From a virus, in IMG/VR virus record IMGVR_UViG_3300035145_003920, positions 13,468 to 77,467 of that record: a stretch of DNA of 64,000 bases. One strand, written 5' to 3'. The notes beneath the pieces were generated by a model. That model did no database searches. It saw nothing but the letters and a program-made list of their open reading frames with translations, and was not told the DNA's origin. The position numbers were made by a program, and so were the translations under genes. Positions 29,782 through 54,381 of the stretch are shown here, piece by piece (position 1 is the first letter of the stretch; each line of letters starts with the position of its first letter).

Positions 29782-31011
29782 TTAATTATTTTTAATTATA
29801 CCAGCTAATTGTTGCATTCTTCTAAATGCATCATTTTCAACAATCGGCTGTTTAGCAACTGGAGCAATTCCTGTTGCTTTTGAAGCGCTACCTTTTACTT
29901 CATTAATTGATGGCTTAGCTTTTTTAGCTGTAATTCCTTCATTTAATGTTTCAAAAATAACTTTAGCTTCTTTTACTGTAGACGCTTTGTCAAATGCTTT
30001 AAGCACTTTAACTTTTTTGTCTTCAGTTAAATTCTTAGACTTAAAGATTTTGTTAGTATAAAGTAGTTTAGCGTTTAATAAGTTAACTTCGTTAAGTTCC
30101 TTTCTAAGTTCCTCAACTTCAGCTAAAGCAGTTTCAAGCTCATTGCTTTCTTCTACTTTTTCTTCATTAACTTCTTCTTCGTTAATTTCTTCTTCCTTTA
30201 CTTCCTTTTTCTCTTTGTCTTCGTCTTTTTTCTCCATCATAGGAGCTGCATCATCTTCAAGGTCGATATCCATTTCCATTTCTGACTCTTCGCCATCCAT
30301 TTCCATTTCTTCTCCCGCTTCTAATTCACCAGCTTCTACCATGTCCTTAATTACATCCTCAATAAAGCCTTTTAAATCATCTTCAGACATATCTTCTAAA
30401 TCAATTTCTTCATCTTCCATTTCACCTTCACCTTCTTCGTCTTCGCCTTCTTCTTCGTTGGCGTCGTCGTCTTCAGCTTCAGTTACTTCTTCCGATTCCT
30501 CAATTTCTTCAGATTCTTCGATTTCTTCTGATTCAGTTACTTCTTCTGATTCTTTAACTTCTTCTTCTTTAACCTCTTCTACTTCGGAAACTTCTTCCTT
30601 AGCTTCTTCGATTTCTTCAGATTCAGTTACTTCTTCATTTTCCGTTACTTCTTCAGTTTCTTCGATTTTATCTTCGTTGATTTCTTCGTCTTCATTAAGT
30701 TCTGCAAGTAATTCATCTAAGTTGACTTCTTCATCAACTTCTTCAGATTCATTTACTTCTTCATTTTCATCTACGTTTTCTACTTCTTCAGAAACTTCTT
30801 CTTTTTTAACATCGTCTTCTTCGTACTTTTTACCGTACTCTTCAACTTTGTCATCTTCTTTGTCCATTTCTTCTAGTTTAGCAGCTAACATATCTTTTAA
30901 ATGAGGTGTAAATGCTTCTTCTAAAGCAGCTTTAGCGTTTGCTATGGCAGTTTCTTTAACCGCTTTAGCATCAGCAATTGCTTCTTTAAGCAAATCTCTG
31001 TTGTTAGACAT
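29782..31011 (-). CDS. Prohead core / scaffolding protein
   Basis: Very acidic EEVTESEEIEE repeats, coiled coil, C-terminal RRMQQLAGII; between protease and capsid genes. Confidence 0.85.
   Translation of the reverse strand: MSNNRDLLKEAIADAKAVKETAIANAKAALEEAFTPHLKDMLAAKLEEMDKEDDKVEEYGKKYEEDDVKKEEVSEEVENVDENEEVNESEEVDEEVNLDELLAELNEDEEINEDKIEETEEVTENEEVTESEEIEEAKEEVSEVEEVKEEEVKESEEVTESEEIEESEEIEESEEVTEAEDDDANEEEGEDEEGEGEMEDEEIDLEDMSEDDLKGFIEDVIKDMVEAGELEAGEEMEMDGEESEMEMDIDLEDDAAPMMEKKDEDKEKKEVKEEEINEEEVNEEKVEESNELETALAEVEELRKELNEVNLLNAKLLYTNKIFKSKNLTEDKKVKVLKAFDKASTVKEAKVIFETLNEGITAKKAKPSINEVKGSASKATGIAPVAKQPIVENDAFRRMQQLAGIIKNN
30470..30790 (-). repeat. Imperfect ~18-nt (EE[VI][TEN]E[SN]) coding tandem repeats in scaffold
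   Basis: Repeated ttcttcgatttcttc / gattcagttacttc units. Confidence 0.7.
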
Positions 31012-31036
31012 AATCGCAAAATTTAAATTTGTGAAA

Positions 31037-31109
31037 TACGGTTATTAGGAACCGTAATAGGAAAGTTTTACATTTGTTGACACCATATAAGAGATGGTGT
31101 ATTACGGTT
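31037..31109 (-). promoter_or_regulatory. Structured 5' leader of scaffold/capsid operon with mutually exclusive helices
   Basis: 31050-31059 is complementary to 31100-31109, and 31050-31056 also to 31037-31043; inner hairpin 31080-31100. Confidence 0.55.
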
Positions 31110-31134
31110 ATACGTATATGGGGATTCTATAAAA

Positions 31135-31740
31135 TTAACAAACAGGACAAAATCCTTTAGAACAAAGAATTTCTCTTACAATGTTGTTAACATTAGTATA
31201 ATCATAGGTAATAGTTTCTTTTCCTTCATTTAATGTTTTCATAAATGAACCTGGATTAGAAGGTGTAGAGACAAAATCCCAACATAATAATTCGAAGTCA
31301 TCTTGTACTTCCATTACATTACCATTTTGTTCTAATGAACCCATACCACGAGATGAAACACCTACAGTTACACCTGCTTTAATTATTTCTTTTAAAATAT
31401 TGCCTGATGGGGTAGGTAAAATTTCTATTTTACCCATTACGTTATCTCCATCCCACCAATATTCTGAAATTATATGTGATACGTTTTGTAAATTTATAAC
31501 TGATGATTCTGGGTGGTCTAATTCTCCAATAGCACGTCTTTCTTTAATAATTTGGGAATACTTATCCATTTCACGTTCCCATAAATCTCTGGCATAGTAT
31601 CTACCATTACCATTTTTTACTTCAGCAGTTGCTAAAATACCCTCAACAAGCAAATTCCCATTCTCTTTATTAACATTTTCAGTTAATTGAATAGGATTTA
31701 CCTTAAAGGTATGCGTTTCTATTAGTAATTTCTTACTCAT
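31135..31740 (-). CDS. Prohead core protease (T4 gp21-like)
   Basis: NGNGRYY, GELDHP, GVSSRGMGS, WDFVSTPS. Confidence 0.95.
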   Translation of the reverse strand: MSKKLLIETHTFKVNPIQLTENVNKENGNLLVEGILATAEVKNGNGRYYARDLWEREMDKYSQIIKERRAIGELDHPESSVINLQNVSHIISEYWWDGDNVMGKIEILPTPSGNILKEIIKAGVTVGVSSRGMGSLEQNGNVMEVQDDFELLCWDFVSTPSNPGSFMKTLNEGKETITYDYTNVNNIVREILCSKGFCPVC

Positions 31741-32620
31741 TTTCTAATTGTACTTCTTCAGTTTCTACTGAATCAACGATTTCGTCTACGATTTCTTCTC
31801 TTTGATATTTTTTACCACACATTTTTTCATACATTTTTTCCATCTTGCCTTTTTTCTTTTCTAAAAGCTTAATTTCCTTTTGCATGGCTTTCATTTTTTT
31901 CTTATCTATTAATTCAGATAAGTTATCATCTTCAGAAATCATATTAATGCGTTGCATTTTAGTTTCAATAACTTCGTCTAATTTATTTAACTTAGCTTCT
32001 AAAGCTACAATTTGAGCTTGTTTATCGATTTCAGCTAAATCATTATCTAAAGATTCTTTTTTAGCTTTTTTAGCTTTTTTAGGTTTGTCTTCTTTTTTTT
32101 CTTCTTCTTCTTCTTTTACAACTTCTGTTGTACCACCCATTAAAGATTCTTTAACTACTTCTTTTAATTTATCTGAGTAGCCACTTTCTTTATGTTTACC
32201 GGAAACTTCTTCAGATTTCATAGTTTCAGCTCCTAAACCTTCAATACCGAACATAGCATTGTTCATATAGTATTGGCCATCTTTAGCTAAATTTTTAGAT
32301 ACCATTTCTCTAATTTCATCTAAAGTTTTATCTGGGTTTTGTTTTGCTTCAAAATAAATACCGTTTAATACTTCTTGACCAATTTGGTTATCTAAATTTT
32401 TAACATCTGAATAGTCAAAGTTGCTTTCTGCTACTTCTTCTACTTCTTTAGAAGGTTTTTTCTCTACAGCTTTAGCTTCTTCAGCTAAATACTCAGCAAA
32501 TTTATTTTCAAAATCTGCCTTTGCTGTAGGTTCAAGGTTATTAATAGGTTTTAAATCAATGTAATTTTCATTGATTAATCCTTTTTTTACTGATTCAAAT
32601 AATTGTTCTGAGTTTTTCAT
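31733..32620 (-). CDS. Head-associated / internal protein
   Basis: Head module; INE, LAE, VKE sites; NLAKDGQYY. Confidence 0.65.
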   Translation of the reverse strand: MKNSEQLFESVKKGLINENYIDLKPINNLEPTAKADFENKFAEYLAEEAKAVEKKPSKEVEEVAESNFDYSDVKNLDNQIGQEVLNGIYFEAKQNPDKTLDEIREMVSKNLAKDGQYYMNNAMFGIEGLGAETMKSEEVSGKHKESGYSDKLKEVVKESLMGGTTEVVKEEEEEKKEDKPKKAKKAKKESLDNDLAEIDKQAQIVALEAKLNKLDEVIETKMQRINMISEDDNLSELIDKKKMKAMQKEIKLLEKKKGKMEKMYEKMCGKKYQREEIVDEIVDSVETEEVQLENE

Positions 32621-32862
32621 TCTCCTGGTTTTAATAATGTTTCAATGTCGTCTATATAAGCGTTAATTAAATCTGTTCCTTTAACTACAGCATAACTTTT
32701 TGGGTTTTCTCTATAGTATTTTATTGTTTCAATTTTAGCTTGACGTATTTCTTTTTTAATATTTTCTAAACGAGACTCTATAGTATCAAATGCCATGATT
32801 CTTTCTTCATGGAATTTTTTTACTTGGTCCTCTTCTTGTTCAATCAATTTATACTTATACAT
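32617..32862 (-). CDS. Small head-module protein
   Basis: N-terminal YKYKLIE matches the upstream gene's YKYKLKE. Confidence 0.7.
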   Translation of the reverse strand: MYKYKLIEQEEDQVKKFHEERIMAFDTIESRLENIKKEIRQAKIETIKYYRENPKSYAVVKGTDLINAYIDDIETLLKPGE

Positions 32863-32863
32863 A

Positions 32864-33736
32864 TTAAAAATTCTTTACTTCTAAACCACTACCTTTTTGA
32901 ACATAATTACCATTTTTGTCCTTAGGTACTAATTTGTATTTGAATTTTGTAACATAATAATTATCTTTTACTCCATCTGGGCCTGCTTTAGGGCCTGGTC
33001 CTAATGTTGCCCCAACATTTTCTTTTAATCCTCCTGGAGTTTTTAATTTTTTTCCTGATTTAGCATCTGTATCATATCCACAAGTACCTTCAGGTAATTT
33101 TTTTTGCTTTTTAGGTAATTTAAAAGCATATTTAGTTAAATAAGAACCTGCTCCAGCTGATGTAGACATTTCTTCTATTTCTGATTCTTTTACTGGTTTT
33201 ACTCTATCACTAGGGAATCTTTTAACTGTACTACCATCAAATCTAACAAATGTTTTATCTCCTTCTACTTTTTCAACTGAACCTGTACCATACATTTTTC
33301 CATCTTTATCATAAACATGTACTAAATCAAGATGGTCATTAATTCCCTCAGCCATCCTCATTTGTATTCTATCATAAATTTCTGGGTGTTCTTTTCTAAT
33401 ATGGGTTCTAACTTGGTTTCTTATTTGACGGATTTGATCATAAAAATCTCTAAATTTAGGATCATCCTTAGATTTTGAAGCAGTTCTTTTAGCTATGTCT
33501 ACTAGATCATCTAATTCTTCAAACATTTTATCATACCCAGGTAATTGTTCTATTCTCCAACTAACTGCACCTGTGGTATCATCAATTTTATAAATGGTAG
33601 ATTTAGATGTCCCATCTGGACTATAAGATACTTGGCCAACTTTAAAAGGTTCCCCTTCTTTACGTTCAAGTTCCTTTGCCGCTGCTTCAGGAGAAGCAGT
33701 TTTAGACATTTCTTTAAGTTTATACTTGTACTGCAT
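32864..33736 (-). CDS. Modular putative internal head protein
   Basis: Segments separated by LKE, MAE, VKE, IEE, LPE, LKE; SH3/KOW-like middle module. Confidence 0.65.
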   Translation of the reverse strand: MQYKYKLKEMSKTASPEAAAKELERKEGEPFKVGQVSYSPDGTSKSTIYKIDDTTGAVSWRIEQLPGYDKMFEELDDLVDIAKRTASKSKDDPKFRDFYDQIRQIRNQVRTHIRKEHPEIYDRIQMRMAEGINDHLDLVHVYDKDGKMYGTGSVEKVEGDKTFVRFDGSTVKRFPSDRVKPVKESEIEEMSTSAGAGSYLTKYAFKLPKKQKKLPEGTCGYDTDAKSGKKLKTPGGLKENVGATLGPGPKAGPDGVKDNYYVTKFKYKLVPKDKNGNYVQKGSGLEVKNF

Positions 33737-34586
33737 TTGCTACTTTAATTTCTTTTACTAGTTCAAAATATTGTAACAAATCAACTAAATTGTCATTAGA
33801 AACTTTAGCTGTTTTATTTAATTCAACTAAATATTTAGCTACTTCCTGAATTTTAATTTGTGTAGCTTTATCTTTAACATTTTTATTTACTTCAGTTAGT
33901 GTTGATTTTAATTCTACTATTTTAGAATTATAAAAATCTCTTAATCCTGGAGTTGAGTCTACTGAATTAATAAACTCTTTAAGTACTTGTTTTTGTTCTT
34001 TAGATAAATTTTCATATTTAGAATTAAATTTTTCTAAAAGAACTTTATAAGTAAGTATTCTTAAATCTTTATCATATGTTTGAAATTCTTTAAGAACATC
34101 CTCTTTAACTACTTCTTCTTTAACTTCTTGTTTAGTCAAGTGTTCTAATAAAGTAATTTTATTTTCAATTAATTGATTTGAATCACTAGCTTCATCAGCA
34201 TTATATCCTTCGATTAAGGTGTATAAAGCAGCTAATTCTTTATAATTTTTAATTTTAGAACCAAAGAAAACATCTAGGTTATAATGTTTTTTGATTTCAT
34301 TAATTAAATTATATTTTTGTTTTCTTAAAGAAGCTCTATTAAATTTTTGAGACGATTCTAATATAGTAGAAATTACAATATTAGCTCTTCCTTCATTTAA
34401 AACCTTTGATTTTAAAATTGATTCGTATAACTTATACTCACGACCTAAGGAAGTTTTTACGAAGTATTCTTTTAATATACTTATTGCTGGAGAGTCCCCT
34501 CCTTTTAAAGTATCGGCAGTAATCTGACGCACTAAAAGCTCAAAAAGGATACCTGTATTCTTGTACTTGGAGTGTTTTATTTTCAT
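33720..34586 (-). CDS. Hypothetical protein downstream of portal
   Basis: MKIKHSKYKNTGILFELL; late motif upstream. Confidence 0.75.
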   Translation of the reverse strand: MKIKHSKYKNTGILFELLVRQITADTLKGGDSPAISILKEYFVKTSLGREYKLYESILKSKVLNEGRANIVISTILESSQKFNRASLRKQKYNLINEIKKHYNLDVFFGSKIKNYKELAALYTLIEGYNADEASDSNQLIENKITLLEHLTKQEVKEEVVKEDVLKEFQTYDKDLRILTYKVLLEKFNSKYENLSKEQKQVLKEFINSVDSTPGLRDFYNSKIVELKSTLTEVNKNVKDKATQIKIQEVAKYLVELNKTAKVSNDNLVDLLQYFELVKEIKVANAVQV

Positions 34587-34622
34587 TAAAAAATATATTT
34601 ATTTATAAATATTAGAAAAGAT

Positions 34623-36521
34623 TTATTCCTTTAATTGTTTTTCATCAAGGAGTGATGTATCATCTTCATTTTGCTCAAAAACTAACTGTTTTTTATTCAT
34701 TTTCTTAAACATATCTTTGTTCTTTAAAAATGTAGTTTGAGCAGTTTCCAATGCTAATCCGCTTTTATTTGTATCTGTTCTACTATCTCTTGAATCATTT
34801 TTATCAGTATCTTTCATACGTTTAACACCTAAACGATCTTTTCCAAAGTTACTATCTTGTTTATTAATATTTGAAATAGAATCTTTAGGTCTTCCTAAAT
34901 CAGCGTCTTCATTATATCCTGGGGGTACATTACCTGGGTCTGAATACATTCTACCCTTACCATATAATGAAGCTAAATCATGAGGAGTACCATATGATTT
35001 ACCTGTTGCAACAGGATCATTTCCTTCTGCTTCAATTTGTGTTAATCTAAATGTTCGTTTAGCATCTTCTCTCATTAAATCTCTCATTTCATCATACTGA
35101 TCTTCTGATAAATGATAAATGTTATCATAAATCCAATCAGTAGGCATGATTTTTTGTTCTTTTAATGTTTGAGCTAATTCTGTTTTAGATTTTAATAATT
35201 CAATTTTTTCTTGTTCAAATATAATTGATGGTGTTTGCATTGAAATTTCAAAATTAGTCAATGCTTCATCTCTATACCCTTGAGCATATAAGTGAACTAA
35301 TGCAATTTTATTAAGCTCGGAAACCATAATACGTTGTAAACGTTCAATAGTACGAGCAAATCTAATATCTTCAGCGGCTAATGTAGCTTTACCTTCTGTA
35401 GTTTCATCATATCCTAAAAATGCTTTAGGAATTTTAAGTGCTGCAAATAATTTATCTCTTAGATATTCAACATCTTGAATACCATCATAATCTAATCCTT
35501 TAGTAGTTTCGATTTTTGTTGTAGTATCATTTCCACGAACGGGGATGTAGAAATCCTCCATCATGTTTTGCATGTTATATTTCATGTTATACTCACCTGT
35601 TTTTTGGTCTAAATAAGGAGTACGTTTCATGTTTGAAATAGTTTTTTGCATAAATGCATCTATTTCATTTGGAGGAATTGATCCAACATTCATATAAAAA
35701 ATACGTTTTTCAGGAGCACGAGCAATTCTATGAATTAACATTGCATCTTCCATTAACGTATATTGTTTAAATAATTTTCTAGCTGGTTCAATATATGAAC
35801 GACCATAAGGAAGATAATTAGTATCCCCAATTAATCTAAAGTGAGCCATTTCATAATTGTCAAAGAAAATACCATTTTCAGTTTGTGATCTATTGTTAGT
35901 AGAATACATTCCCGAACTTGGATTTACTAATCCATTAGGATCATATCTAAATCTTACATCAGATGGGTTTTCAGCGTTAAATCCTTCTTCTCTACTAATA
36001 TGGTAAGCAGTATAAGGTATTACATTATAAACACCAAATTTTTCTGCTACTTCTAGTTTTAAGAAAAAATCGCCAAATTTAGACATTTGTCTAACCCATG
36101 CCCATAAGTTAAATTCAATATTTAATACATCATAAAATAAGTTATAAAGTATTTTTTGAATTGCTTCATTATTAGAACGAATAGATAATATTTCACCCAT
36201 ATCATTCTTTAATGTTGATTCATCAGCTATAATATCTAAAGCAGAGGCAATAATTGCATCTTGATCCATTACATCATATTCTGAATATAATTGGGGTCTT
36301 AAATATTGGTAATTAAAATTAAATTGAGCCCCATATAATGATGATGGGTTTGTAGAATATAAACGATTATATCTGTCAATTAATGAATTAGTTTGTAATT
36401 GTCCATTGGTTTGAATAGCACTACTATCTATTACTTTAATTTGGTCTCCACCAACGTTTCTAATAATTACGTCAGTTGAAAATAATCTTCTTAATCTACT
36501 AAATAAGCCTGTATCTGCCAT
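34623..36521 (-). CDS. Portal protein (gp20-like)
   Basis: SALDIIADE, LMEDAMLIHRIARAPEKRIF, EDFYIP.RG, ALKIPKAFL, EDIRFAR. Confidence 0.96.
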   Translation of the reverse strand: MADTGLFSRLRRLFSTDVIIRNVGGDQIKVIDSSAIQTNGQLQTNSLIDRYNRLYSTNPSSLYGAQFNFNYQYLRPQLYSEYDVMDQDAIIASALDIIADESTLKNDMGEILSIRSNNEAIQKILYNLFYDVLNIEFNLWAWVRQMSKFGDFFLKLEVAEKFGVYNVIPYTAYHISREEGFNAENPSDVRFRYDPNGLVNPSSGMYSTNNRSQTENGIFFDNYEMAHFRLIGDTNYLPYGRSYIEPARKLFKQYTLMEDAMLIHRIARAPEKRIFYMNVGSIPPNEIDAFMQKTISNMKRTPYLDQKTGEYNMKYNMQNMMEDFYIPVRGNDTTTKIETTKGLDYDGIQDVEYLRDKLFAALKIPKAFLGYDETTEGKATLAAEDIRFARTIERLQRIMVSELNKIALVHLYAQGYRDEALTNFEISMQTPSIIFEQEKIELLKSKTELAQTLKEQKIMPTDWIYDNIYHLSEDQYDEMRDLMREDAKRTFRLTQIEAEGNDPVATGKSYGTPHDLASLYGKGRMYSDPGNVPPGYNEDADLGRPKDSISNINKQDSNFGKDRLGVKRMKDTDKNDSRDSRTDTNKSGLALETAQTTFLKNKDMFKKMNKKQLVFEQNEDDTSLLDEKQLKE

Positions 36522-36548: not shown

Positions 36549-38120
36549 CTATAAAAGCCAAGTAATATCTTCTTTATTTCCGTTTTGTGTATCAATATGA
36601 TAGGGATTATCATTTCCACTAGAGAAATAACCACCTTGATACGCTGTTCTATTTACTTTTATATTATTTAAAGCATTTCTTGTAGCATCTAAACCACGTT
36701 GTCTTAACTTTAAAGCTGTATCCCTAATATACATTGCAATACCAAAAGACATAACTAAATCATCGTTATATCCTGATTGTGCTTCTGCTCTTCCATTACG
36801 CCAAATAAATACTTTCATTTCCTCTATCAATCTTTTGGATTGAATTGTTACTCCTTTATCACTAATGTATTCTTGAAATTTACCTACTACCATAGGTCTA
36901 GTCCTAGAAGACATTGTAAAACCAGCTACCATTTTGGAGTGGTCTTGATACTTATCAAAATACGAATCAGCATTTGGGGAGTCACTCCTTTGTGAATAGT
37001 AGAGATTAGGATATTGTCTGTCAATAGCAACTTGTATAGTTGCCCAACCAATATTAGCATTTTCTATTACTAACATTGCTTCATTATATTCAGTAGCTAA
37101 GCCAACTAATAAATGCCCATAATCTTTAGTACCAATTTGACCTTTATATTCCGCTACTTGTACATTATTAGCAACATCAATTACATGGCATGCTGAATAG
37201 TCTTTTCCGTCTCCTCTTGAAACATCCGCTACTACAATATAATCTCTAGTATAATCAGGTGATTCCCAAACCCATAAATTTTGATCAGCTCCTCGTTTTT
37301 CTAATGGTTCTTTAATATAAGATTTTTCATAATATTCAATATATTCAGGATAAAATACTATATCACCAGAAGTACTAAAATCACAATCACATTCCTGAGC
37401 TGCCATTCTAGGATCACCCAATAATTCATCTTGCCTATCCCTCCATGCTTGGTCTCGTTCTGGGTGAACATACCAAGGTAATTTAATAGGTAAAAATTCA
37501 TTTTCTGCTGCTTCTGCTCTTGCCCATGTTTGATGAAACCAATTACCAGTACCATAAGGAGTAGATAATGCAATACACCCCCCACCAGTTGCTAATGTTT
37601 GTTGGGCTGAGGCCCAAATCTCTCCAATATTATCAATAAAAGCTGCCTCATCAATTAATAGTAAAGATACTGCTTCTGATCTACCTGCATCTGAACTTGC
37701 TGAAGTGGCTTTAATTTGGGATCCATTTCTTAATCTTAAAGTTAATTTGTTATTTTCGTCTGCATCTACTTTTAACCATGAAGGTAAATTTTCATACATA
37801 AATTTTACCTTTGTAACCATGTTTTTTGCTGTTTCTTGTTTTGTAGCAATACAAAGAATGTTTTTATCCTTAGCAAATAACATTAACCATAAAGAATAAC
37901 CAGCAGTTAAAGTAGAAATACCTAACTGTCTAGATTTTAAGATAATCGAATAGGGATTATCTCTCATTAATGTTAATACTTTTTCTTGGAATGGATAAAG
38001 ATTAAATTGAATACGTCCTCTTTGTGGGTGTTGGATATAACAATATTTACGCATAAAGTGAACTGGGTCTTTAGCGCATCTAAGATATTCCTGACGTATT
38101 ACTTTTTTTATTTCGGACAT
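36549..38120 (-). CDS. Terminase large subunit (gp17-like)
   Basis: LKSRQLGIST, LLIDEAAF, STPYG, ADVSRGDGKDYS, GYNDDLVM. Confidence 0.97.
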   Translation of the reverse strand: MSEIKKVIRQEYLRCAKDPVHFMRKYCYIQHPQRGRIQFNLYPFQEKVLTLMRDNPYSIILKSRQLGISTLTAGYSLWLMLFAKDKNILCIATKQETAKNMVTKVKFMYENLPSWLKVDADENNKLTLRLRNGSQIKATSASSDAGRSEAVSLLLIDEAAFIDNIGEIWASAQQTLATGGGCIALSTPYGTGNWFHQTWARAEAAENEFLPIKLPWYVHPERDQAWRDRQDELLGDPRMAAQECDCDFSTSGDIVFYPEYIEYYEKSYIKEPLEKRGADQNLWVWESPDYTRDYIVVADVSRGDGKDYSACHVIDVANNVQVAEYKGQIGTKDYGHLLVGLATEYNEAMLVIENANIGWATIQVAIDRQYPNLYYSQRSDSPNADSYFDKYQDHSKMVAGFTMSSRTRPMVVGKFQEYISDKGVTIQSKRLIEEMKVFIWRNGRAEAQSGYNDDLVMSFGIAMYIRDTALKLRQRGLDATRNALNNIKVNRTAYQGGYFSSGNDNPYHIDTQNGNKEDITWLL

Positions 38121-38561
38121 TTACTTTACTAATAATACTGCAGCTACCACACCTACTATACCTGCACCCATAGTTAATTTATTTTTTAATTTTTGCTTTT
38201 TTAAATCAGCTTCTAATCTTGCAGTTAATTCTTTAGATAAAGCTACTTGATTAGCTTGTTGATTAATAATACCTTCATAGTTATTAATCTGCCGTCTTAA
38301 ATTTGTAACTAAATCAGTTTGTGATAATAATTTATTATTAGTTTCAGTCAAAACCAGTTGCATTGTTTCCATTTCAGACCCTAGCCCATCAAATTGGATA
38401 AGATCTTTAATTACCAATTTTGCAACAGGTTTAGTTAATTGAATCTTGGTGCTGTCCTTCGAGGATGTGTCTGTAGCGTTCTGCGAAAAAACGTTCAAGC
38501 TCATCATCACCAAAGAAATCAACAGCATCAACTTTTTGCTTTGTTTCATTTTTGATAACAT
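38121..38561 (-). CDS. Signal-peptide coiled-coil protein with C-terminal hydrophobic anchor (spanin-like partner)
   Basis: SPI-like LLISLVMMSLNVFS-Q; C-terminal GAGIVGVVAAVLLVK; overlaps the upstream gene. Confidence 0.5.
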   Translation of the reverse strand: MLSKMKQSKKLMLLISLVMMSLNVFSQNATDTSSKDSTKIQLTKPVAKLVIKDLIQFDGLGSEMETMQLVLTETNNKLLSQTDLVTNLRRQINNYEGIINQQANQVALSKELTARLEADLKKQKLKNKLTMGAGIVGVVAAVLLVK

Positions 38562-39327: not shown

Positions 39328-39352
39328 TATAATAGGTTTTATTATAAATATG

Positions 39353-39883: not shown

Positions 39884-39884
39884 A

Positions 39885-45459: not shown

Positions 45460-45900
45460 TTAAGCTTCTGCTGGTACTTCTTCATCATCTGTATCTGGTT
45501 CTACCATTTCATTTTCACCTTCAACTGATGCTCCACTTGCAGGACCATAGGTTAATATACGAGAAATAGCTTTGGCAGCCATTTCTTCTTCATCTAAATT
45601 TAATAAATAATATTTTTTACCTGATACTTGAGCAATCCAACTTCTAGGATCAAATATAAGAACAAAATTTTGCCCATTTAATAAATTAATTCTAAAAGTT
45701 GAAGGACGAGGAGCTACCCAATCTACTGATTCAAGAAATTTGTCAAAATCAACAGTAAGTAAATCTATGATAACTGCTTTAAGTTCAGGGAATTTAACTA
45801 ATTCATCATATGCTACAGCAGCATCATCTCCTTTAATTTTATCTTTGTATACTTGTTTAGCAAGTAATTTTATTTTCTCTTTTAATTCCGAAGCTGTCAT
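45460..45900 (-). CDS. Putative internal head protein
   Basis: [11 protein letters not shown] leader. Confidence 0.65.
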   Translation of the reverse strand: MTASELKEKIKLLAKQVYKDKIKGDDAAVAYDELVKFPELKAVIIDLLTVDFDKFLESVDWVAPRPSTFRINLLNGQNFVLIFDPRSWIAQVSGKKYYLLNLDEEEMAAKAISRILTYGPASGASVEGENEMVEPDTDDEEVPAEA

Positions 45901-48644
45901 TATTTGTCATTTTGTTTAGATAAATAAGCTGCTACAGCCATTTTACGTCTTTTTTCTTGAGATTTACCTTTAAATTGAGGTGCATCTGAATCTTTAAAGT
46001 CTTCAATATGTTTTTCTACTGATGATCTTTTGGTAAGTTTTTCTTTCATTACCTCTTTAACGTGTTTTTGGATAAGGTGTTTTAAAGGTAACTCAAATTT
46101 TGTATCAGCATCTACTTCAATTTTTTCTTCATCTATAGTACCTGATGTTGGTCCTCTTTTAGCATAAAAAGATTGTTGAGCATCTGCTTCTCTACTTAAA
46201 CCACCCATTACATGATCAACTGCGTCTTTTAATCCTTTAGCTGAAATAGGAGTGGGTGAATAATTACCATCTACCATATAAGCATCCATTCCTGCTCTAG
46301 CTAATCTGCTTGTTTCTTTCATCCCTGCTTTAATAGCCTCTTTTTGATCAATTTGGTAACCACCCATTTGTCTAATTGAGAATTTATTGGTATCATCATC
46401 ATAATCAAATATTACATATTGATCCTTACCAGATGGTTCTCTTTTAACTATATAACTATTATCGCTGTGAAAATGATTGTCTAAAATATATTCTTCTTTA
46501 AAGTAAATAAGTAATTCCTTACCATCCATTGCCTCGTTTAAAGAACTTTTAACAACTTTAATTAAATTAGGATAGCGTTTAGCAAAATCTAATGCTTGAC
46601 TATAATCTCCGTCAAATACTACATTATTAAGCTCTGTACCTTTTGTATAAGATGTTTGATCAGCTCCTGCTTTAAGTTCAGCATCAGTATACCATTCATT
46701 TTTGTCATCAGATAATTCTCCTGATTCAACATTGAAATACACTACTGGTGGTAAAAGTTCTACTGAATATTGTTGTTGGGAAGTTGTGTCGCCTTTTTCG
46801 TTTTTCATAATAATTTTGGCAACATCTTCTATAGATTGAGCATTATCTAAAATATCGAAAACATAGCTTCCTCCACCACTTTCATTATCATAAGTAGTAT
46901 AACGGCTAATTTTGTCTTTGATTGCATCAGCATCTCTACCAGAGGCAGATGACCATTGTTTCCAAAGAGGCACTATTGCTTTAATCTTATCTTTAATTGA
47001 AAGTTCACCTTCGGGGTAGCGAGGAGTATTAGCTTCGTCTAAGTAATCTTTCTCAGCTCTTCTTCGTTGCATGTAGTCTGTAGGAGTAGTATCATCATCA
47101 AATTTTAGATTAGAAATTGCATCAGCATAATCTACCATTTTTCCACTATCAACAAACTCAACTTTCCATTCTGTTTCAGGTCCATGCATATGAACTACTA
47201 CAGCTCTACCAGCGTAAGTAGCAGGTTTCATTTCTGTAGGATCCATTTCTTCATTTACTCCAGAGGCAACATCTTTTATTTTATCAACATGGCCTTTTAA
47301 ATAATGTACTTTATCAGCATCAATACCTAAATCTCTAGATAAATTAATAATTACAGATCGTAATCCTTCTGCTGCTTTAATATGTTTATCATCTGCTTTT
47401 TTAGAATTAAGAACATCTTTTTCTAATTTGAATAATTGATCATGTCTATAAGTCCATTCACCTAATTCTTCAGCTGTTTTACCACTATCTAATAATTCTT
47501 TTCTTAAAGCTTCAGCACCTGGGCAAATATCAAAATGTTTAGGTTCAGTATGAGCACTATAATTTACTTCATTTAGCATAGCATCAATTTTATCTACCTT
47601 TTCTTCGCCATCTAAATAATGCTTAGCTTTAACTATATAATCTCTTGCTTTGATAATTTTACCTTGCCACCAATGTGGAAAATCTACTTCTCCTTGGTCA
47701 TCATAATTATCCATCATTTTATATAGTTCAGCTGCGTATTTAGCTATTCTATATAAATCTTTTTTAAGCATACGAGGTTCATTATCTTGATGTCCTACAT
47801 CTAGATCTTCTTGCATGTAATCTTCATCTTCATCTTCATCATATGAATCATAGAAATCATCTTCTTCATCATAATCATCTTCTTCTTCATCTTCATATTC
47901 AGAATCAAAATCAAACATTTCTCTTCCTAATTCATCATATTGATCTTCAGGAATACCTTCAATATAACTAAGTACTAATTCAGCAACTTCATCAAGCATT
48001 TTTTCATATACTTCATCTCTGTATTCACCTACTACTGCATCAAATAATGCTTCTAATTTTCTTTGTTCTTCTCTATTTATTTGAGATGAATTAACTAAAA
48101 ATGAATGAGCAGGTCCTGCGGTTTCAGTTCCATATCCTTCCCAAAATCTATCACCATCATTGTACCATCTATAAACTAATCTATTCATAGCTCTAAGCAT
48201 TTCACCTTCAACAGATTTAGAAGGTCCACTACTTGGAACTAATTTATCCCACAATGCTTCATTTCTTGATTTTAAGGGCTCCTGTAGGAATTCTTTAATG
48301 AGATTTTCGGTTTTAATATCTTGTTTAATTTTAACAGGGTGCATTTTACCACTGCCTTTTGGGAATTCAAATTCTTTTTTACCTGCATCTCTAGCAGCGT
48401 CAGCAGCTAAGACAAAAGGAGATGCCTCTTTAACAGTAAGAGCATCTTTAATCATTGATTTAAGATTTTCTAAGTTCATTTTTTCAACTTTTTTCTTGGC
48501 CTGTTTAGTGGCAATTCCATACATAACCTTTTCAGCATCCCCACCGTATTTTTTAACTAGAGCTTGTTTGTTCTTTAACAAACCTTTTAGAGCGATTTTT
48601 CTTTGCTCTAGTTCGTTTTCGGTGAGTTTGCGCTCGTTTAACAT
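45900..48644 (-). CDS. Multi-module polyprotein-like internal protein
   Basis: About 10 small modules joined at VKE, LQE, MQE, LNE, VNE, LDE, IDE, MKE. Confidence 0.65.
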
Positions 48645-48645
48645 C

Positions 48646-49326
48646 TTATCTTTCTACTACGTGTGATCTTGTAAAGAAAGTAATTGAGTTACCGATTTGG
48701 TCGGCTAATTTTTCATCTCCAATAGCTACAGCTTTATCATAAGCTACTTTTAAGCTATTCTGAATGTCTTGTTCATCTGAGGATAAACCTGCAGGAGCAG
48801 AAGGAGCAGGGGCTTCAACATCAGCTTCAACTTCATCTTCTACTTCTACCTCAGCATCATCTGGTTCAATCTCATCAGCTGCATCATCGATTTCATCTTC
48901 ATCTTCATTAAGTAATGAAATAATATCTTCTTTAATTTTAGCTTTAAGTTCAGACACTTTCATTTTAGATGAAGGAACTTCTTCTTGAATTTCTTCTTCA
49001 GTTACTTCTTCAGTAACTTTTTCTTCATTTAATGTTTCAAAAAATCCTTCAATTCTATCCATTAGGGCATTTGCTTTTACCACATCAGTTTCTCCTCCTC
49101 CTGCACCTAGTCCCAATTTTTCGTACATTGCTACTAGCATATCCCCAATATAATCTAATTCTTCATCAGAAAAGACTTCTGTTGGATGTGGACGGTTTTC
49201 ATTTATTTTATCTTCAGCTAAATTTTCATCAACTTCCTGAGATTCAGTGATTAATTTATTCTCTTCAACTTCTTTTTGAAGTAAAGGATTATTCTTTAAA
49301 TATTCTTGATAATTAAAATCGCTCAT
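48646..49326 (-). CDS. Acidic putative internal head protein
   Basis: MSDFNY leader; [21 protein letters not shown]; late motif upstream. Confidence 0.65.
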
Positions 49327-49351
49327 TATAGTATATTTTTATTTATAAATA

Positions 49352-49987
49352 TTAGTTCCTTCTGTTAATGTTACCTCTTCCTGAACTAGATGTGGAATTA
49401 TTACTAGTAGGAGGTGGGGTAAAATTACTACCTTTTGAGATATTAGGTCTACTAATTGAAGGACGTGTATTTATATTATTATTATTTGGTTGTCTTAAGT
49501 AAATTCTATTATTATTATTACCTCTAGGAGGGTTTATGTTTATATTGTTATTTACATTATTATTAGAATTATTATTATTTCTTACTCCATTAGGGGTTAC
49601 AATAATATTATTACTTCCTCTTCTACCATTAACATAAACTCTAGGTTTTTGAGGTTTAATAGGTAATTCTAAACTGTAATTATATACTGGTGGTTTATAG
49701 TAAAAATCTCTATAATACCATGAATTTGGTCTATATAAACTATTCCATCCATACCCATAATAAGGATAATTCCAATATCCCCAATTTAAATTAGAATTAA
49801 ATCTATAATTATCAAATACAGTATTATAATTATATTTTTGGAATTGTTTAATAGGAACAGCTAAAGTATCACCTGTTGCAGTAATAGTTAATACTTTAGT
49901 AATTTTAACTTTAGGAGTAGTGCTAACCTGGTAAACACCACAACTTGTTAGACTTAATGCTAACAGTAATGTTATTATATATCTCAT
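49352..49987 (-). CDS. Lipoprotein with Y/W-rich middle and N/R/P/S-rich disordered tail
   Basis: Signal and lipobox MRYIITLLLALSLTS-C. Confidence 0.75.
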   Translation of the reverse strand: MRYIITLLLALSLTSCGVYQVSTTPKVKITKVLTITATGDTLAVPIKQFQKYNYNTVFDNYRFNSNLNWGYWNYPYYGYGWNSLYRPNSWYYRDFYYKPPVYNYSLELPIKPQKPRVYVNGRRGSNNIIVTPNGVRNNNNSNNNVNNNININPPRGNNNNRIYLRQPNNNNINTRPSISRPNISKGSNFTPPPTSNNSTSSSGRGNINRRN

Positions 49988-49991: not shown

Positions 49992-50393
49992 TTAGTCTCC
50001 TGGAAAGTAACCTGGAGATTTTCTCCAACTATCTAGAGCAGCTCCTTTGGCTTTAATATAAGAATCTTTATCATCTCTAAATTTATCATCTAGAATTTGA
50101 ATTCTTTCCCAGGGTGATGCTGCTTCAACATCAATTTTAATAGTTACATTTCCATATTTATCTTTAATACCTTCTTTCCAATTTTCAAGGTCATTTCCAC
50201 TTTGAACACTTCTATAGGAATCATCTGGGTTAGGAAAATTTAAGCCAAACATAGGAATTTTACCAAACATAGACTTTACTACATTAAAAGTTAATTGGTC
50301 TAGTTTCATAGTTGCTTGTTTTGGACCCATTCTTCCGTCTACTTCATCTAAGTAACGTTTTTTGTTCCAATTGTGTACATCAAAATTGCTCAT
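49992..50393 (-). CDS. Putative internal protein
   Basis: MSNFDVHNWNKKRYLDE leader; late motif upstream. Confidence 0.65.
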   Translation of the reverse strand: MSNFDVHNWNKKRYLDEVDGRMGPKQATMKLDQLTFNVVKSMFGKIPMFGLNFPNPDDSYRSVQSGNDLENWKEGIKDKYGNVTIKIDVEAASPWERIQILDDKFRDDKDSYIKAKGAALDSWRKSPGYFPGD

Positions 50394-50423
50394 AATAATA
50401 TGTTTATTATAAATATATAATTT

Positions 50424-50996
50424 TTACTGTTTAAGTGATTCTAAATATTCTACAACTTCTTTAGTAGATTTTTTAATTTCTTCTTTATTATGTTTTCCTC
50501 TCCACTTTTCAACATCTCCGTCTTCTGAAATAAAGGATTGAGTAGATTCATTTGATTTTTCTTTTGCCCAAGCTTTAAAATCTTTTATTTTATTATCAAT
50601 TTCATTATTTTTAATGCTACGCTCATACTCTTCCCATTTTCCAGTTTTTCTAAGCTCATGTTCAAAATCAATAACACAATTAAAACACATTTTATGTATA
50701 GTGTAAAATGGCTTATCATTACGATTTTTCATTACTTTTTTACATTTAGGACAAAGTAAAGGCATTACATGGGCCTTTTTAGCTTTGTCTAACTTAGTAA
50801 TGTTTTGTTTTATGCCATCTTTAATAGTCCAAGTACGACCATCAGCTTCCCAAATATCTCCTTCTTTATGGAATTCTTCTGCTTTAGTAAATCCAACACT
50901 AGAACGTGTTTTTTCACCATATTTACCTTTTACAAGATTTCTAATTCGTTCTACATCACGTTGTTGGAAATCTTTTTTTAAAATGTTGTCTTTCAT
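50424..50996 (-). CDS. Zn-ribbon protein
   Basis: CPKC...CFNC. Confidence 0.75.
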   Translation of the reverse strand: MKDNILKKDFQQRDVERIRNLVKGKYGEKTRSSVGFTKAEEFHKEGDIWEADGRTWTIKDGIKQNITKLDKAKKAHVMPLLCPKCKKVMKNRNDKPFYTIHKMCFNCVIDFEHELRKTGKWEEYERSIKNNEIDNKIKDFKAWAKEKSNESTQSFISEDGDVEKWRGKHNKEEIKKSTKEVVEYLESLKQ

Positions 50997-53584
50997 AAAC
51001 CTAATTTAGCCAAATCATTTAATACCTGACTTATATTTTTATACACTATACCTGTACCTCCAGCTGCATTCCATCTTCCAATAGTATCTTCTCTATCATC
51101 AATTAAAATATCAGTTTTAGATAATTGAGATTTAATTTCATGTTTTTCCTTTGCCTTTTTAAAATTAATACGGGGTTTTGATGGGAATATATCTCCTGTA
51201 TGATTCCTTACCCAAAGTATTTTACCTAAATAAGATTGTTTTTTAACTGAAGGTGAGGTTAGTAATTCATAATTATAATCTTTAACAGCATTTACTAAAT
51301 CAGCTGCCCCTGGCATGGGTTCAATTCCAACCCAAAAACTAACTTTATGTTCTTCATCTATAAAATCCCAGAATTTATTTTTACCATATTTAGATTCAAA
51401 TTCACTAGGGCCTATACCTGATAGATCTTTAAATCGTTTATCAAAATCAGCTAATACTCCATCCATATCAAGATAAACTTTATATTCACTTTCTTCTTCT
51501 CTTAAACGACCTAATTCATGAGCATAAGCCATAAGTCCAAATGGATCCTTATTTTTCTTTTTCCCTTCAGTTAAAATAGTACTAAAAAAGTTATGTTTAA
51601 TTTTTTCTAAATCTTTATATAACCTATTTATAGGGGGAAGACTTTCATCTATTTTTATTTCTTCATTTAATTTATTCCCAGTAATAGAATCAGTCCAACT
51701 TCTAAACATTATATTACCTGTTTCATATGCCTCTCTTTCTAACTGTTCTAAATGGTCGTCTTGATTAACATCTGTAGTATTAATAGTTTCTAATCTATCT
51801 TCCATATTTTGATGAACATGAACTAATTCATGGGCATAAGATCGTAAAATATCTTTAGGATGCCTACCATAAGTGAAAAGAACTATTATATTAGTTTGAG
51901 GAGCATAATAAGCTGTTTTACCAAAAATATCTTCTCCATTTTCAATATCATCATGTACCATTTGAATTTGAGGAAGAGGTTCTAATTTCATTCCTTTATC
52001 TATCATATGTTGAGTAAGAGAAGCTATATAAGGGCTGTAATTAAATTTTCTAAAATCTGGATATTTACTAAATATTTTTTCATATATTAAATCCAATTCT
52101 TCAGATGAAGATATTTCAATTACTTGGTTTTGGGTAAGTACAACAGCATCAATATATTTTTTATCTAATTCTTTATAACTTACGTATCTATGATGACCAT
52201 CTAATATTTGATATTGATTATTATGTTCCCTAACTATAATTGGGGGAATAGATTCTTTATTAGATATAGAAGATTTTAGTGATTTAATTTTATCATCATC
52301 AAATTTTGTTGTTTTATGTAAATTGATATTATTTACTAAAATAGGAGTTGGAGAAGTTGATTCAATTAAATCCTGATTAAATTTAAATGTTGTATCTATC
52401 TTATCTCCATGTAAAACTATTAATGGGAAATCTTCATTTATATTAGTTGGTACTTTTAATGGTTGAGTAGCAAAATATTTTTTAAGATTAACTTTACCTT
52501 TTGAATCTTTTAAAGGTATAGTTTTAGGAAGGGTATTTTCATCCCATTTTGTTCCTGGGACTGCTAAAAGTATTTGATCTTCAGATAATATTTTTGTATT
52601 TATTTTTGGAAGATTTCCAATAACAAATGCTCCTAATCTATGGTTACCATCTATAACTGAGTATTTACCATTTAAAATAGGATGAGGAACTACTACTATA
52701 GGATCAAAACTTTTCCAGCCATCTCCAGAAGCATTTTTTATCATTTTTTCTACATATTCCTTTTTAGTAGTTGTAAAATATTTATAATCTTTATAAGGTT
52801 CATTTCCTATACAGTCAGTTACATTTAAAATTTTTTCTGTACCTATAATATCTTCGTCTACATCCACACCTTGAAAATCAGGGTAAACTACTACTTTATC
52901 TTTAAATGGGTCTTTAGTACTAAAATCTAAAACTAAATTAGTTTCAGTAAAATATTTAAGTTCGGATTTTATTTGGTCTATTTTATTCATTTGTGAAAAA
53001 CTTTTATTTTCAGCTACTTTACCAGATACTAATTCATATACTTCATATTTTTCATCATTAGATAAAACATCAGGAGCAAATTTTTTAAATTTTTCAAATG
53101 ATACTTGAGCCGCGTTTCTAGCAGCAGTACCCGATACTCCTCCTGCTGTAATAATAGTACGTAATTCTAAATTTGGGTAATTTGAAATTGACTTGGTTCT
53201 TGAAGTAATATCTTTAAAATCTTCTTCATTACCTTCTCTAGCACCTATAACCCATAATACTTCTCTTGTGGGGTGATCCTTAGAGAAATTATAAACAGCT
53301 TGAATTGGGGGTTTAGAAGTAGGTACTATTTTAACTTTAAGTGGAAGATAATCATTATAAATTTCCCAAATTAAAACTGATTCTGCTTGGGTAATACCAT
53401 TTCTTTCTTTGTTACCTACAAAAATAATAAATTCATCTATTTCCGGGTTTTCCTTAAGGGCTTCTTTAACTACTTCAAAGTGACCAGAAGTAGGAGGTTT
53501 AAACCCTCCAGCATACACTGCTGTGGTTTGTTTGTTTTCTTCTTCAGGTAATAACCCTTTTATTAATTCATTTACTAAACTCAT
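50993..53584 (-). CDS. Multi-enzyme protein: nucleotidyltransferase-like + 2x ParB/Srx-like + HExxH metallopeptidase + HAD 5'(3')-nucleotidase
   Basis: AGGFKPPTSGH; VIDGNHR and ILDGHHR; AHELVH..EREAY; YLDMDGVLADF..ILIDD..W..AGG. Confidence 0.8.
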   Translation of the reverse strand: MSLVNELIKGLLPEEENKQTTAVYAGGFKPPTSGHFEVVKEALKENPEIDEFIIFVGNKERNGITQAESVLIWEIYNDYLPLKVKIVPTSKPPIQAVYNFSKDHPTREVLWVIGAREGNEEDFKDITSRTKSISNYPNLELRTIITAGGVSGTAARNAAQVSFEKFKKFAPDVLSNDEKYEVYELVSGKVAENKSFSQMNKIDQIKSELKYFTETNLVLDFSTKDPFKDKVVVYPDFQGVDVDEDIIGTEKILNVTDCIGNEPYKDYKYFTTTKKEYVEKMIKNASGDGWKSFDPIVVVPHPILNGKYSVIDGNHRLGAFVIGNLPKINTKILSEDQILLAVPGTKWDENTLPKTIPLKDSKGKVNLKKYFATQPLKVPTNINEDFPLIVLHGDKIDTTFKFNQDLIESTSPTPILVNNINLHKTTKFDDDKIKSLKSSISNKESIPPIIVREHNNQYQILDGHHRYVSYKELDKKYIDAVVLTQNQVIEISSSEELDLIYEKIFSKYPDFRKFNYSPYIASLTQHMIDKGMKLEPLPQIQMVHDDIENGEDIFGKTAYYAPQTNIIVLFTYGRHPKDILRSYAHELVHVHQNMEDRLETINTTDVNQDDHLEQLEREAYETGNIMFRSWTDSITGNKLNEEIKIDESLPPINRLYKDLEKIKHNFFSTILTEGKKKNKDPFGLMAYAHELGRLREEESEYKVYLDMDGVLADFDKRFKDLSGIGPSEFESKYGKNKFWDFIDEEHKVSFWVGIEPMPGAADLVNAVKDYNYELLTSPSVKKQSYLGKILWVRNHTGDIFPSKPRINFKKAKEKHEIKSQLSKTDILIDDREDTIGRWNAAGGTGIVYKNISQVLNDLAKLGL

Positions 53585-54381
53585 TAAGATAAAAATTGTT
53601 TAATTTTAGATTGTGCTTCTTCTTTAGATACAGAACCATCTATAATTTCTTTAGCTCCATCATCACTTAATAAAGCTTGTATTTGGGTATTTGTTTCAGC
53701 TTTTTGTTTATCACTTCTAGCTTGTTGAGATGCCGATTTAGGTTTAGTTCCTGTGGGTTTGAATGGGTCTAAATATTTTTTAATTACATCCTCCACATCT
53801 TTTAACTTTTCATCTTCTAATGTATTAGCTACAGAAATAAAATTATTACCAAACATTTCTTTATATGGTGCCCAATTTTTAGTTACTGATAACCAAGTAC
53901 GCATTACAATAGCAGGTGCTAAACTTCTATCTTCACCATTTGATTTTTCAAATCTATCTTGGTTTTGTTTAAGTGATCTTTCTAAATCAGTATAAACATA
54001 AAGCATTAATATTTCATATCCTGCTTCTTCTAATTGATCTTTTAAAGTTACTGTTTGTTTAACTGAAGCAGCGGTACCATCTAAAACAAATGATTCTTTA
54101 CCAGTAATTATATTTTGCAATTCACCTTTAAATTCTTTATTAGCTGCAGCCATTGCCTTAGCTTGTTCACTTCTTTCTTCAGGTGTGGCATTTTTTAAAT
54201 CTAAACTAACATTAGCTTGTTTAAGTTTATCAATAAAAATATTATCAATATTCATTATTTTTAAATTACCTAAGTCTAAACCACTTAAAACATACCCTTT
54301 GCCAGCCCCAGGTGCCCCTGCTAATATAATAGCTTTAGGGTTTTGAACATTTTCCTTAAGTAAGTCGTAAAGTTTAATCAT
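53584..54381 (-). CDS. P-loop kinase (zeta-toxin/AAA_33-like)
   Basis: LAGAPGAGK, FVLDGT, N..R..R; leader MIKLYDLLKE. Confidence 0.75.
   Translation of the reverse strand: MIKLYDLLKENVQNPKAIILAGAPGAGKGYVLSGLDLGNLKIMNIDNIFIDKLKQANVSLDLKNATPEERSEQAKAMAAANKEFKGELQNIITGKESFVLDGTAASVKQTVTLKDQLEEAGYEILMLYVYTDLERSLKQNQDRFEKSNGEDRSLAPAIVMRTWLSVTKNWAPYKEMFGNNFISVANTLEDEKLKDVEDVIKKYLDPFKPTGTKPKSASQQARSDKQKAETNTQIQALLSDDGAKEIIDGSVSKEEAQSKIKQFLS

Follow-up and report, generated by a model that had tools for sequence, protein, structure and literature searches.

Exchangeable N-terminal leaders with an [LI]xE junction beside the head genes of a far-T4-like phage: a probable extension of a principle known from T4

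The window analysed here is a stretch of 64,000 nucleotides (nt) from the IMG/VR virus record IMGVR_UViG_3300035145_003920 (positions 13,468 to 77,467 of that record); its region between positions 29,782 and 54,381 contains, within and next to a head gene module, genes whose products begin with short peptides, here called leaders, that recur on otherwise unrelated proteins. Comparison with related phages establishes well, and with little room for doubt, that these are modular leaders ending in an [LI]xE junction. Judged from their sequences, they are exchangeable modules under selection at the peptide level, confined to one clade and located in late-type transcription units beside the head genes. 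It is probable that they are targeting propeptides of the T4 type, cut by the prohead protease, and the window fits the T4 scheme in every feature that a sequence can show. The principle is already known from T4, and the window most likely extends it.

The window covers 64 kb out of a 77.5-kb contig with a GC content of about 30% and nearly all genes on the minus strand; it comes from a far-T4-like myovirus of an abundant, common marine lineage. Comparison of the head module with GenBank phages by megablast gave no DNA-level match, and relatives were found only by protein. The nearest cultured one is Flavobacterium phage vB_FspM_immuto (hereafter immuto; host Flavobacterium sp. LMO8), with a capsid protein 56% identical; others are Microcystis phage Mel-JY01, two uncultured huge phages and Rhodothermus phage RM378. 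At least 597 relatives of the terminase are present in IMG/VR, and the 80 loci kept for comparison are 79-97% identical. Database searches with the bodies of two putative cargo proteins returned 2,700-2,900 homologs each. Searches of the leader proteins against Pfam and PHROGs revealed no function for most of them.

Leader classes and their exchange between proteins

An N-terminal [LIVM]xE, counted when Glu falls at residues 5-22, is present in 18 of the 29 proteins of the region and in 11 of the 52 encoded in the rest of the contig (p = 3e-4 by Fisher's test). Internal segments of equal length contain the tripeptide in 37% of cases, and the N-terminal excess over this rate has a binomial p of 0.005. 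The motifs are thus more frequent than expected by chance. When each N-terminus was compared by short-query BLAST with the proteins of the window and of immuto, the similarities found ended after 10-30 residues; otherwise unrelated proteins share leader families with E-values as low as 1e-15, and the similarity of the bodies stops at the leader boundary.

Clustering of the N-termini from the window, immuto and the IMG/VR loci yielded the following classes. Class A (MKKSELKxFIKE, in many cases followed by another LxE around residue 20) is conserved at L6, F/Y9, I10 and E12 and comprises 43 proteins with 4 unrelated bodies. Class B (MDNFDLRKYLAE, plus a variant named B') is conserved at F4, L6, Y9, L10 and E12, with 41 proteins and 28 unrelated bodies; class D (MIKLYDLLKE) is conserved at L4, L/I7, L8 and E10, with 22 proteins and 6 unrelated bodies. 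In all three, P7, P4 and P3 are hydrophobic and P1 is Glu, positions being numbered backwards from the junction. Among 41 unique class A leaders P7 is Leu in 41, P3 is Ile in 41 and P1 is Glu in 39 and never Asp, counts partly set by the regular expression used for selection; a position outside the site has Glu in 27 and Asp in 9. The exact class B coding pattern (MDNFDL) occurs 88 times in 69 IMG/VR stretches, all of which carry homologs of window or immuto genes, and is thus restricted to the clade; 83 of the occurrences are complete open reading frames (ORFs) of 56-396 amino acids (aa) with 33 unrelated bodies, and in 77 of these 83 a second [LIVMFY]xE lies at residues 13-24. The B' leader was found on 6 unrelated bodies.

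Where leader copies agree in every residue, 20-40% of the codons are still different, and such synonymous differences show that selection acts on the peptide; recent gene conversion, considered as the origin of the leader identity, finds no support in the same comparison. The group beginning with YKYKLxE behaves differently: all of its 34 members fall in one body cluster, so that YKYKL is rejected as a modular tag shared by unrelated proteins, as it had been taken to be, and is a trait of a single paralog family.

The exchange of leaders on the same protein is best followed on a basic protein with a DUF5872 domain, a domain reportedly mentioned in a paper on an algal virus. It has a 14-aa leader in the window, a class A-like one in immuto, class B in locus L076 and class D in locus L101. 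In a census of junctions in the best 120 of 2,939 database homologs, the sequence ahead of the mature protein took 66 different forms, 10-117 aa long; 64 of these place [LIV]xE immediately before the run of Lys with which the mature protein begins, and in the remaining two Leu-Glu-Glu lies a few residues farther upstream. P3 is Leu in 49, Ile in 14 and Val in 1, P2 is free and P1' is mostly Lys.

The second case is a zeta-toxin-like P-loop kinase, which in fold comes closest to zeta, PezT, AvrRxo1 and adenylate kinases and whose Walker A motif (GAPGAGKG) is invariant. Its leader belongs to class D in 11 of 12 aligned sequences (those of the window and of 11 IMG/VR orthologs) and in each of the 120 best database homologs; Glu10 is invariant in both sets (12/12 and 120/120), positions 4, 7, 8 and 10 are the conserved ones, position 9 varies freely and residues 11-14 are hypervariable. 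In the ortholog of locus L090 the same domain is preceded instead by a B' leader, with LAE at the joint. In the AlphaFold model the predicted local distance difference test (pLDDT) score stays below 50 over residues 1-12 and the confidently predicted domain begins at residue 16, and the leader is accordingly modelled as an unstructured peptide outside the Pfam domain. Asp was never seen in place of the P1 Glu in the 120 plus 12 kinase leaders or in the 64 of 66 DUF5872 junctions.

Two other proteins display the same behaviour. One with a conserved VGSDDV block has a class A leader in several phages and class B in locus L067; a small core protein with the sequence GAGxYLTKYAF has the YKYKL leader in locus L062 and an A-like leader in immuto. 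Tandem class B genes also vary between phages whose large terminases (TerL) are 80-97% identical.

Every string quoted in the initial annotation is present in the ORF named for it, and the fate of the single proposals differs. The MSDFNY and MSNFDV leaders proved to be class B, on 28-33 bodies, and B', on 6; MIKLYDLLKE likewise stands as class D, with 22 proteins in 6 bodies and an invariant E10 in the kinase. Of one group of five strings that had been read as leaders, the copies in the 226-aa and 914-aa ORFs (48646, aa 122-141 of 226; 45900, aa 56-73 of 914) are internal to the longest ORFs, each lying after a Met retained in orthologs. TASELKEKIK (45460) is the first helix of a domain that forms part of an 841-aa protein in immuto. 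Finally, MDVFDKILKE, at the start of the gene at 43719, was tried as a leader and discarded, its Glu being missing from most orthologs.

Head module and late-type promoter motif

The head module comprises genes for a gp23-family capsid protein, an S77 prohead protease, a gp20 portal and a gp17-type large terminase (Table 1); its gaps are filled by the scaffold gene and four small or medium-sized genes. The S77 prohead protease, which belongs to the T4 gp21 family, aligns to the T4 gp21 structure (PDB 5JBL, E 8e-16) in a way that pairs its DHP and SSRG stretches with the T4 sequence. It carries an N-terminal LLIE8 plus a second site, LTE, which are kept in 21 of 22 orthologs.

In the capsid protein, alignment to mature T4 gp23* places VVE58/S (the slash marking the cut) at the position equivalent to the T4 cut. 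An [LIV]xE is invariant at this position in 16 capsid proteins, including those of immuto and Mel-JY01; a variable Gly/Ser-rich linker follows VVE58, and the first 58 residues are conserved as a unit resembling the T4 delta piece. The capsid propeptide is therefore most likely of the 58-aa delta type rather than the 8-aa leader MSLQTLLE put forward earlier; VVE58 displaces LLE8 as the maturation site, and LLE8 may be at most an additional cut.

The acidic scaffold had been described as rich in VxE and IxE, and it indeed contains 41 [LIVM]xE tripeptides against 25.9 +/- 3.8 in composition-preserving shuffles. When the whole contig is ranked, the largest excesses over shuffles are those of the conserved 288-aa protein adjoining the portal gene, which comes first (19 against 7.6 expected, z 5.6), the scaffold, two basic proteins and the protease. 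The 81-aa and 290-aa proteins encoded at the position of the T4 prohead core genes begin with YKYKLxE, and their [LIV]xE is retained in about 27 and 28 orthologs, respectively.

A motif, ATATTTATAAWWAA, also written ATATTTATAA, with the T4 late-promoter core TATAAATA, occurs at 17 sites between positions 15738 and 58179 of the window against 4.4 expected, 16 of the 17 on the coding strand; a copy upstream of the portal gene has two mismatches and is outside the 17. The genes for the sheath, tube, tape measure, neck and 288-aa protein and several accessory genes have the motif 15-25 nt ahead of their start codons, and it precedes the leader genes at 38812, 48646, 49992 and 53584. In the relatives it was found before 39 of 39 class A genes, 49 of 52 portal genes and 47 of 48 genes for the 288-aa protein, against 17% of other genes; class B and class D genes mostly have no motif of their own (34% and 26% have one). 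Its placement suggests a late promoter. Since the sheath, tube and tape-measure genes share the motif and have no leader, the leader is not a general trait of late messages.

Targeting propeptides and competing explanations

If the leaders are T4-style targeting propeptides, the amphipathic leader helix would dock the late-made protein on the scaffold core or on the capsid interior during prohead assembly, and the gp21-like S77 protease would then cut after [Leu/Ile/Val]-x-Glu; the same protease would degrade the scaffold and remove the 58-aa piece of the capsid protein. The mature cargo would remain in the head with the DNA and would probably enter the host at infection. Among this cargo would be small basic proteins, a large number of small variable ones, the zeta-like kinase and a fusion of nucleotide enzymes. 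Docking, cleavage, retention and injection are inferences from sequence. Of the system proposed in the initial annotation, the central idea, modular leaders that end at an xxE site and are read as T4-like targeting propeptides, has strong comparative support in the leader swapping on one mature protein, the invariant [LI]xE junction, the restriction to the clade, the late-promoter context and the adjacent S77 protease. The statement that it carries many enzymes did not hold: recognisable enzymes with leaders are in the window only the kinase and the 863-aa fusion, to which a standalone nucleotidase is added in relatives.

In T4, one conserved leader heads highly diverse cargo (PMC3012670; PMC9026906). 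The first 10 residues of internal protein III (IPIII) suffice for its packaging; mutagenesis assigned residues 4 and 7 to targeting and residues 8 and 10 to processing, which is blocked by Asp at position 10, and gp21 itself carries LIE-9 (PMC9026906). Positions 4, 7, 8 and 10 are the ones conserved in the kinase leader. More in general, the likeness to T4 concerns an N-terminal leader of 10-20 aa with hydrophobic residues at 4, 7 and 8 and Glu at 10, the [L/I]-x-E motif, an S77 protease gene between those for portal and scaffold, and small basic cargo; the mature DUF5872 protein and a 200-aa protein are strongly basic (pI, isoelectric point, about 10), as are the T4 internal proteins. The capsid targeting sequence (CTS) of T4 is said to read MKTYQEFIAE, which has the same hydrophobic positions 4, 7 and 8 and Glu10. 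Differently from T4, at least three to four interchangeable leader classes, in 10-aa and 12-aa registers, are found in one phage, upstream domains of 50-117 aa are present in some relatives, internal and C-terminal copies occur, and the putative cargo, known here from sequence alone, includes large multi-domain enzymes. The polymorphic internal-protein loci of T-even phages also have hypervariable small genes next to conserved ones, with a constant leader and a changing body; the clade described here differs in its host range and in the position of the locus upstream of the terminase gene, and no anti-restriction function is inferred for any of its members.

In giant phages (phiKZ, 201phi2-1, SPN3US) a related prohead protease processes a large set of head proteins by cutting after Glu, paralogs with identical N-terminal 15-mers exist, and enzymes such as the virion RNA polymerase are packaged and ejected; their motif is A/S-x-E and most of their propeptides exceed 100 aa (PMC5694885). 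The [L/I/V]-x-E and the leaders of 10-20 aa found here are nearer to T4. A short terminal peptide places a protein inside an HK97-fold shell also in the case of the C-terminal coat-binding helices of scaffolds and of the cargo-loading peptides of encapsulins. A similar case may be the RMQ-LAGII motif found at the C-terminus of the scaffold, which four small proteins of relatives carry N-terminally, in every case with [IL]xE after it, and which also lies within the 222-aa protein encoded at 44786; by analogy it may be a capsid-binding peptide. It differs from those systems in that the copies outside the scaffold are followed by [IL]xE and that capsid binding is presumed from the C-terminal position in the scaffold.

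Several observations weigh against leaders cut by the prohead protease. A stricter CTS-like pattern (hydrophobic P7 and P4, [LIVMF] at P3 and Glu at positions 8-14), found at the N-termini of 5 of 29 against 1 of 52 proteins in the window and of 9 of 31 against 8 of 179 in the complete immuto genome, over an internal background of 1.7-1.9%, was devised after the data were seen. Amphipathic helices in a proteome rich in Lys, Glu, Leu and Ile tend to yield the leader pattern, and class A-like helices are also found in internal and C-terminal positions, hence they are not strictly N-terminal signals. The Glu is lacking from the MDVFDKILKE start in most orthologs and from the 295-aa core protein (31733) in several, and in Mel-JY01 the LLE, LLKE and LIE of the window's capsid protein, scaffold and protease are replaced by ILT, LLKN and LID. 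Proteins of 863 and 914 aa would have to be packed and ejected, which is plausible. No virion proteome or biochemistry for the phage or its relatives was found in a literature search; no paper on Mel-JY01 was found, and those mentioning immuto treat other topics. Finally, comparison of the leaders with the CTS and internal-protein leaders of T4 detected no alignable similarity, the likeness consisting of the pattern at positions 4, 7, 8 and 10 only; it thus bears on how the leader works and not on a common descent of the peptide.

Among the alternatives, the main rival, itself rather unlikely, is that the leaders are uncleaved docking helices for another late partner (for example a chaperonin, a site of assembly at the membrane or a protein with which they oligomerise) and that the proteins act in the cell. 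It would accommodate the internal and C-terminal helices of the same kind, the resemblance of several leader proteins to metabolic or host-takeover enzymes, the GroEL/GroES encoded by immuto and the distance of some immuto leader genes from the head module (1.8, 24-25, 60 and 81 kb). What it leaves unexplained is the junction itself, an [LI]xE in which Asp never takes the place of Glu and P2 varies freely, as well as the convergence of upstream sequences of 10-117 aa on one such junction and the enrichment of the same tripeptide in the scaffold and core proteins. Less probable still are propeptides removed by the protease whose main role is to keep the cargo inactive, as in zymogens or antitoxins, with targeting as a secondary effect; the kinase does belong to the fold class of zeta-toxin and AvrRxo1, which includes toxic kinases, and the [LI]xE junction is compatible with cleavage, but an unstructured 10-aa peptide outside the domain is an unlikely kinase inhibitor, the same leaders are found on dozens of tiny non-enzymatic proteins, and S77 proteases act inside the prohead according to the T4 literature.

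A likeness residing in the nucleic acid, as a mobile cassette of promoter and initiation region or as a product of recent duplication or gene conversion, with a functionless peptide, has a very low probability. Mobile regulatory cassettes reportedly shuffle genes in T4-type phages, the motif directly precedes all 39 class A genes, and an A-rich start such as MKK is a usual mark of strong initiation regions; against this stand the codon differences among amino-acid-identical copies, the class B and D genes mostly devoid of their own promoter, the sheath, tube and tape-measure genes that have the promoter without a leader, and a conservation that spans 12-20 codons and ends exactly at the Glu. 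This explanation and chance are both disfavoured. That Lys/Glu/Leu/Ile-rich proteins of a 30% GC genome simply start with helices containing [LIVM]xE is scarcely credible: an 18-residue internal span already contains the tripeptide in 27-37% of cases and the listed cases at 43719 and 31733 are not conserved, but the N-terminal frequency exceeds both that background and the rest of the contig, and composition does not account for the leader-family E-values, for 33 bodies on one exact leader or for 64 of 66 junctions with a site.

Were the leaders indeed targeting propeptides, a clade-specific leader followed by [LI]xE would predict the packaged, and probably injected, proteome of very common marine phages, turning dozens of ORFan genes into candidates for host takeover or counter-defence in the first minute of infection, and the T4 packaging principle would be ancient and diversified. 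Since immuto is a cultured relative, this prediction can be tested directly. Protein delivery had been suggested as a prospective use; plug-and-play loading and delivery are already established for T4 (PMC9026906, PMC10229621), and the gain for biotechnology would be small because the T4 leader is already employed for this purpose. A more speculative possibility, less likely than not, is that a combinatorial set of tags, made of several functionally equivalent leader classes, and mimicry of the C-terminal scaffold motif serve the clade to load a fast-evolving arsenal, injected with the DNA as a pre-formed counter-defence; this arsenal would consist of dozens of small variable proteins and of enzymes directed at nucleotides or nicotinamide adenine dinucleotide (NAD), namely the zeta/AvrRxo1-like kinase and the nucleotidyltransferase-ParB-zincin-nucleotidase fusion.

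Leader and accessory genes of the region

Table 1. Coordinates of head, leader and related features in the window
Feature	Position (nt)	Strand	Basis or remark
gp23-family major capsid protein	28149-29753	-	Pfam Gp23, E 2e-71
Probable capsid delta-propeptide, residues 1-58, ending VVE58/S	29580-29753	-	Alignment to mature T4 gp23*
Acidic gp22-like scaffold, DLLKE leader-like start	29782-31011	-	Position and immuto ortholog
Scaffold C-terminal RMQQLAGII motif	29794-29826	-	Conserved in >10 scaffolds
Peptidase S77 prohead protease (T4 gp21 family)	31135-31740	-	Pfam PF03420, E 7e-30, 104 bits (cut-off 27)
Three genes at prohead-core position (295, 81 and 290 aa)	31733-33736	-	Synteny with T4 genes 67/68 (portal-protease interval)
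Conserved MSTSxGAGxYLTKYAF block within the 290-aa protein	33122-33169	-	
Conserved 288-aa protein adjoining the portal gene	33720-34586	-	Own late-type promoter, 34599-34612
gp20 portal	34623-36521		Pfam
T4-type (gp17) large terminase	36549-38120		Pfam
171-aa protein, class A leader	38812-39327	-	Leader residues 1-20, nt 39268-39327; late-type promoter, 39338-39351
Basic DUF5872 protein, mature pI 10.3	42710-43126	-	Pfam match from residue 17
DUF5872 14-aa leader, ending LNE14	43085-43126	-	
200-aa basic protein, pI ~10	43126-43728	-	N-terminal Cys-rich CxCxxxC, then LLTE19/SKVK (nt 43672-43728)
222-aa protein	44786-45454	-	Internal FQQLAGII then EQE, aa 139-151 (nt 45002-45040)
914-aa protein, then 146-aa protein	45460-48644	-	Fused in immuto
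226-aa acidic protein, class B leader (nt 49270-49326)	48646-49326	-	Late-type promoter, 49339-49352
133-aa protein, B' leader MSNFDVHxW...YLDE17 (nt 50343-50393)	49992-50393	-	Late-type promoter, 50403-50416
863-aa fusion: nucleotidyltransferase, ParB_N domains, HExxH region, NT5C nucleotidase	50993-53584	-	Pfam and PHROGs
Zeta-toxin-like P-loop kinase	53584-54381	-	Pfam Zeta_toxin, 61.6 bits (cut-off 22.3), match from residue 11
Kinase class D leader, 10 aa, ending LKE10	54352-54381	-	Late-type promoter, 54391-54404

The class A leader of the 171-aa protein contains two sites, IKE12 and LNE20. The position of its gene upstream of that for TerL led to its consideration as a small terminase; this identity was rejected, since the length and the middle region of the orthologs differ greatly even among phages with TerL 80-97% identical. 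Between the class A and terminase genes (38121-38805) lie two overlapping genes for membrane proteins, one with an N-terminal transmembrane helix and a coiled coil, the other with a signal-peptide-like start, a coiled coil and a C-terminal transmembrane helix, the latter conserved in 63 relatives; together they look like a spanin pair.

In the 200-aa basic protein the LLTE/[GS]KV sequence is kept in relatives and is identical to the N-terminal site of the immuto protease. Its Cys-rich CxCGCxxC stretch precedes [L]xE, and a similar CGCSAC is found just upstream of the junction in DUF5872 variants with long leaders (P0046, P0059, P0083 and P0086), some of which end in a C-terminal class A-like helix. 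A BLAST comparison of the 914-aa protein with the long DUF5872 variants (MLNERKL) for a shared N-terminal domain gave an E-value of just 0.07-0.1, which makes such a domain a mere candidate.

The 914-aa protein has a conserved 55-aa N-terminal domain followed by an internal class A-like helix ending VKE73/A (nt 48426-48479), and the 146-aa protein starts with ELKE8. In the marine clade the 146-aa protein has a gene of its own, whose start overlaps the stop of the 914-aa gene, and its counterpart in immuto gp079 (L001:7111-9636) is the C-terminal domain of the 841-aa homolog; the point of gene split or fusion coincides with a class A-like helix. Besides its leader, the 226-aa protein has a class A copy farther inside, at residues 122-141 (nt 48904-48963). 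A predicted lipoprotein of 211 aa (49352-49987), with a signal peptide ending in Cys, a middle part rich in Tyr, Trp and Asn and a long Asn-rich tail, is encoded in one late transcription unit with the B' leader gene.

A helical extension of about 16-20 aa precedes the first strand of the 863-aa fusion (nt 53537-53584); the N-termini of its orthologs vary, yet they retain a helix with [LI]x(x)E. The NT5C nucleotidase, part of the fusion in the window, has a separate gene in immuto (where gp088+gp087 correspond to the fusion) and in loci L092 and L099, with an N-terminal extension of its own and [LI]xE before DMDGV. Conversely, the enzymes encoded at 39353, 39885 and 40570 have no leader and begin directly at the first strand. 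In the interval 39353-41904 an AAA_28 protein (NadR-type kinase-like), a cytidylyltransferase-like protein and an FAD/NAD-binding oxidoreductase are found side by side; these three leaderless enzymes may form, with the nucleotidyltransferase fusion, a nucleotide or NAD salvage set.

The GAGxYLTKYAF block follows an acidic junction in the small protein encoded at the prohead-core position. This protein stands alone in some phages and is included in the 290-aa protein in the window; the block occurs in locus L062 (L062:10040-10327), in immuto gp072 and, in the version GYETPYAF, in a 178-aa ORF of Mel-JY01 (L102:15494-16030).

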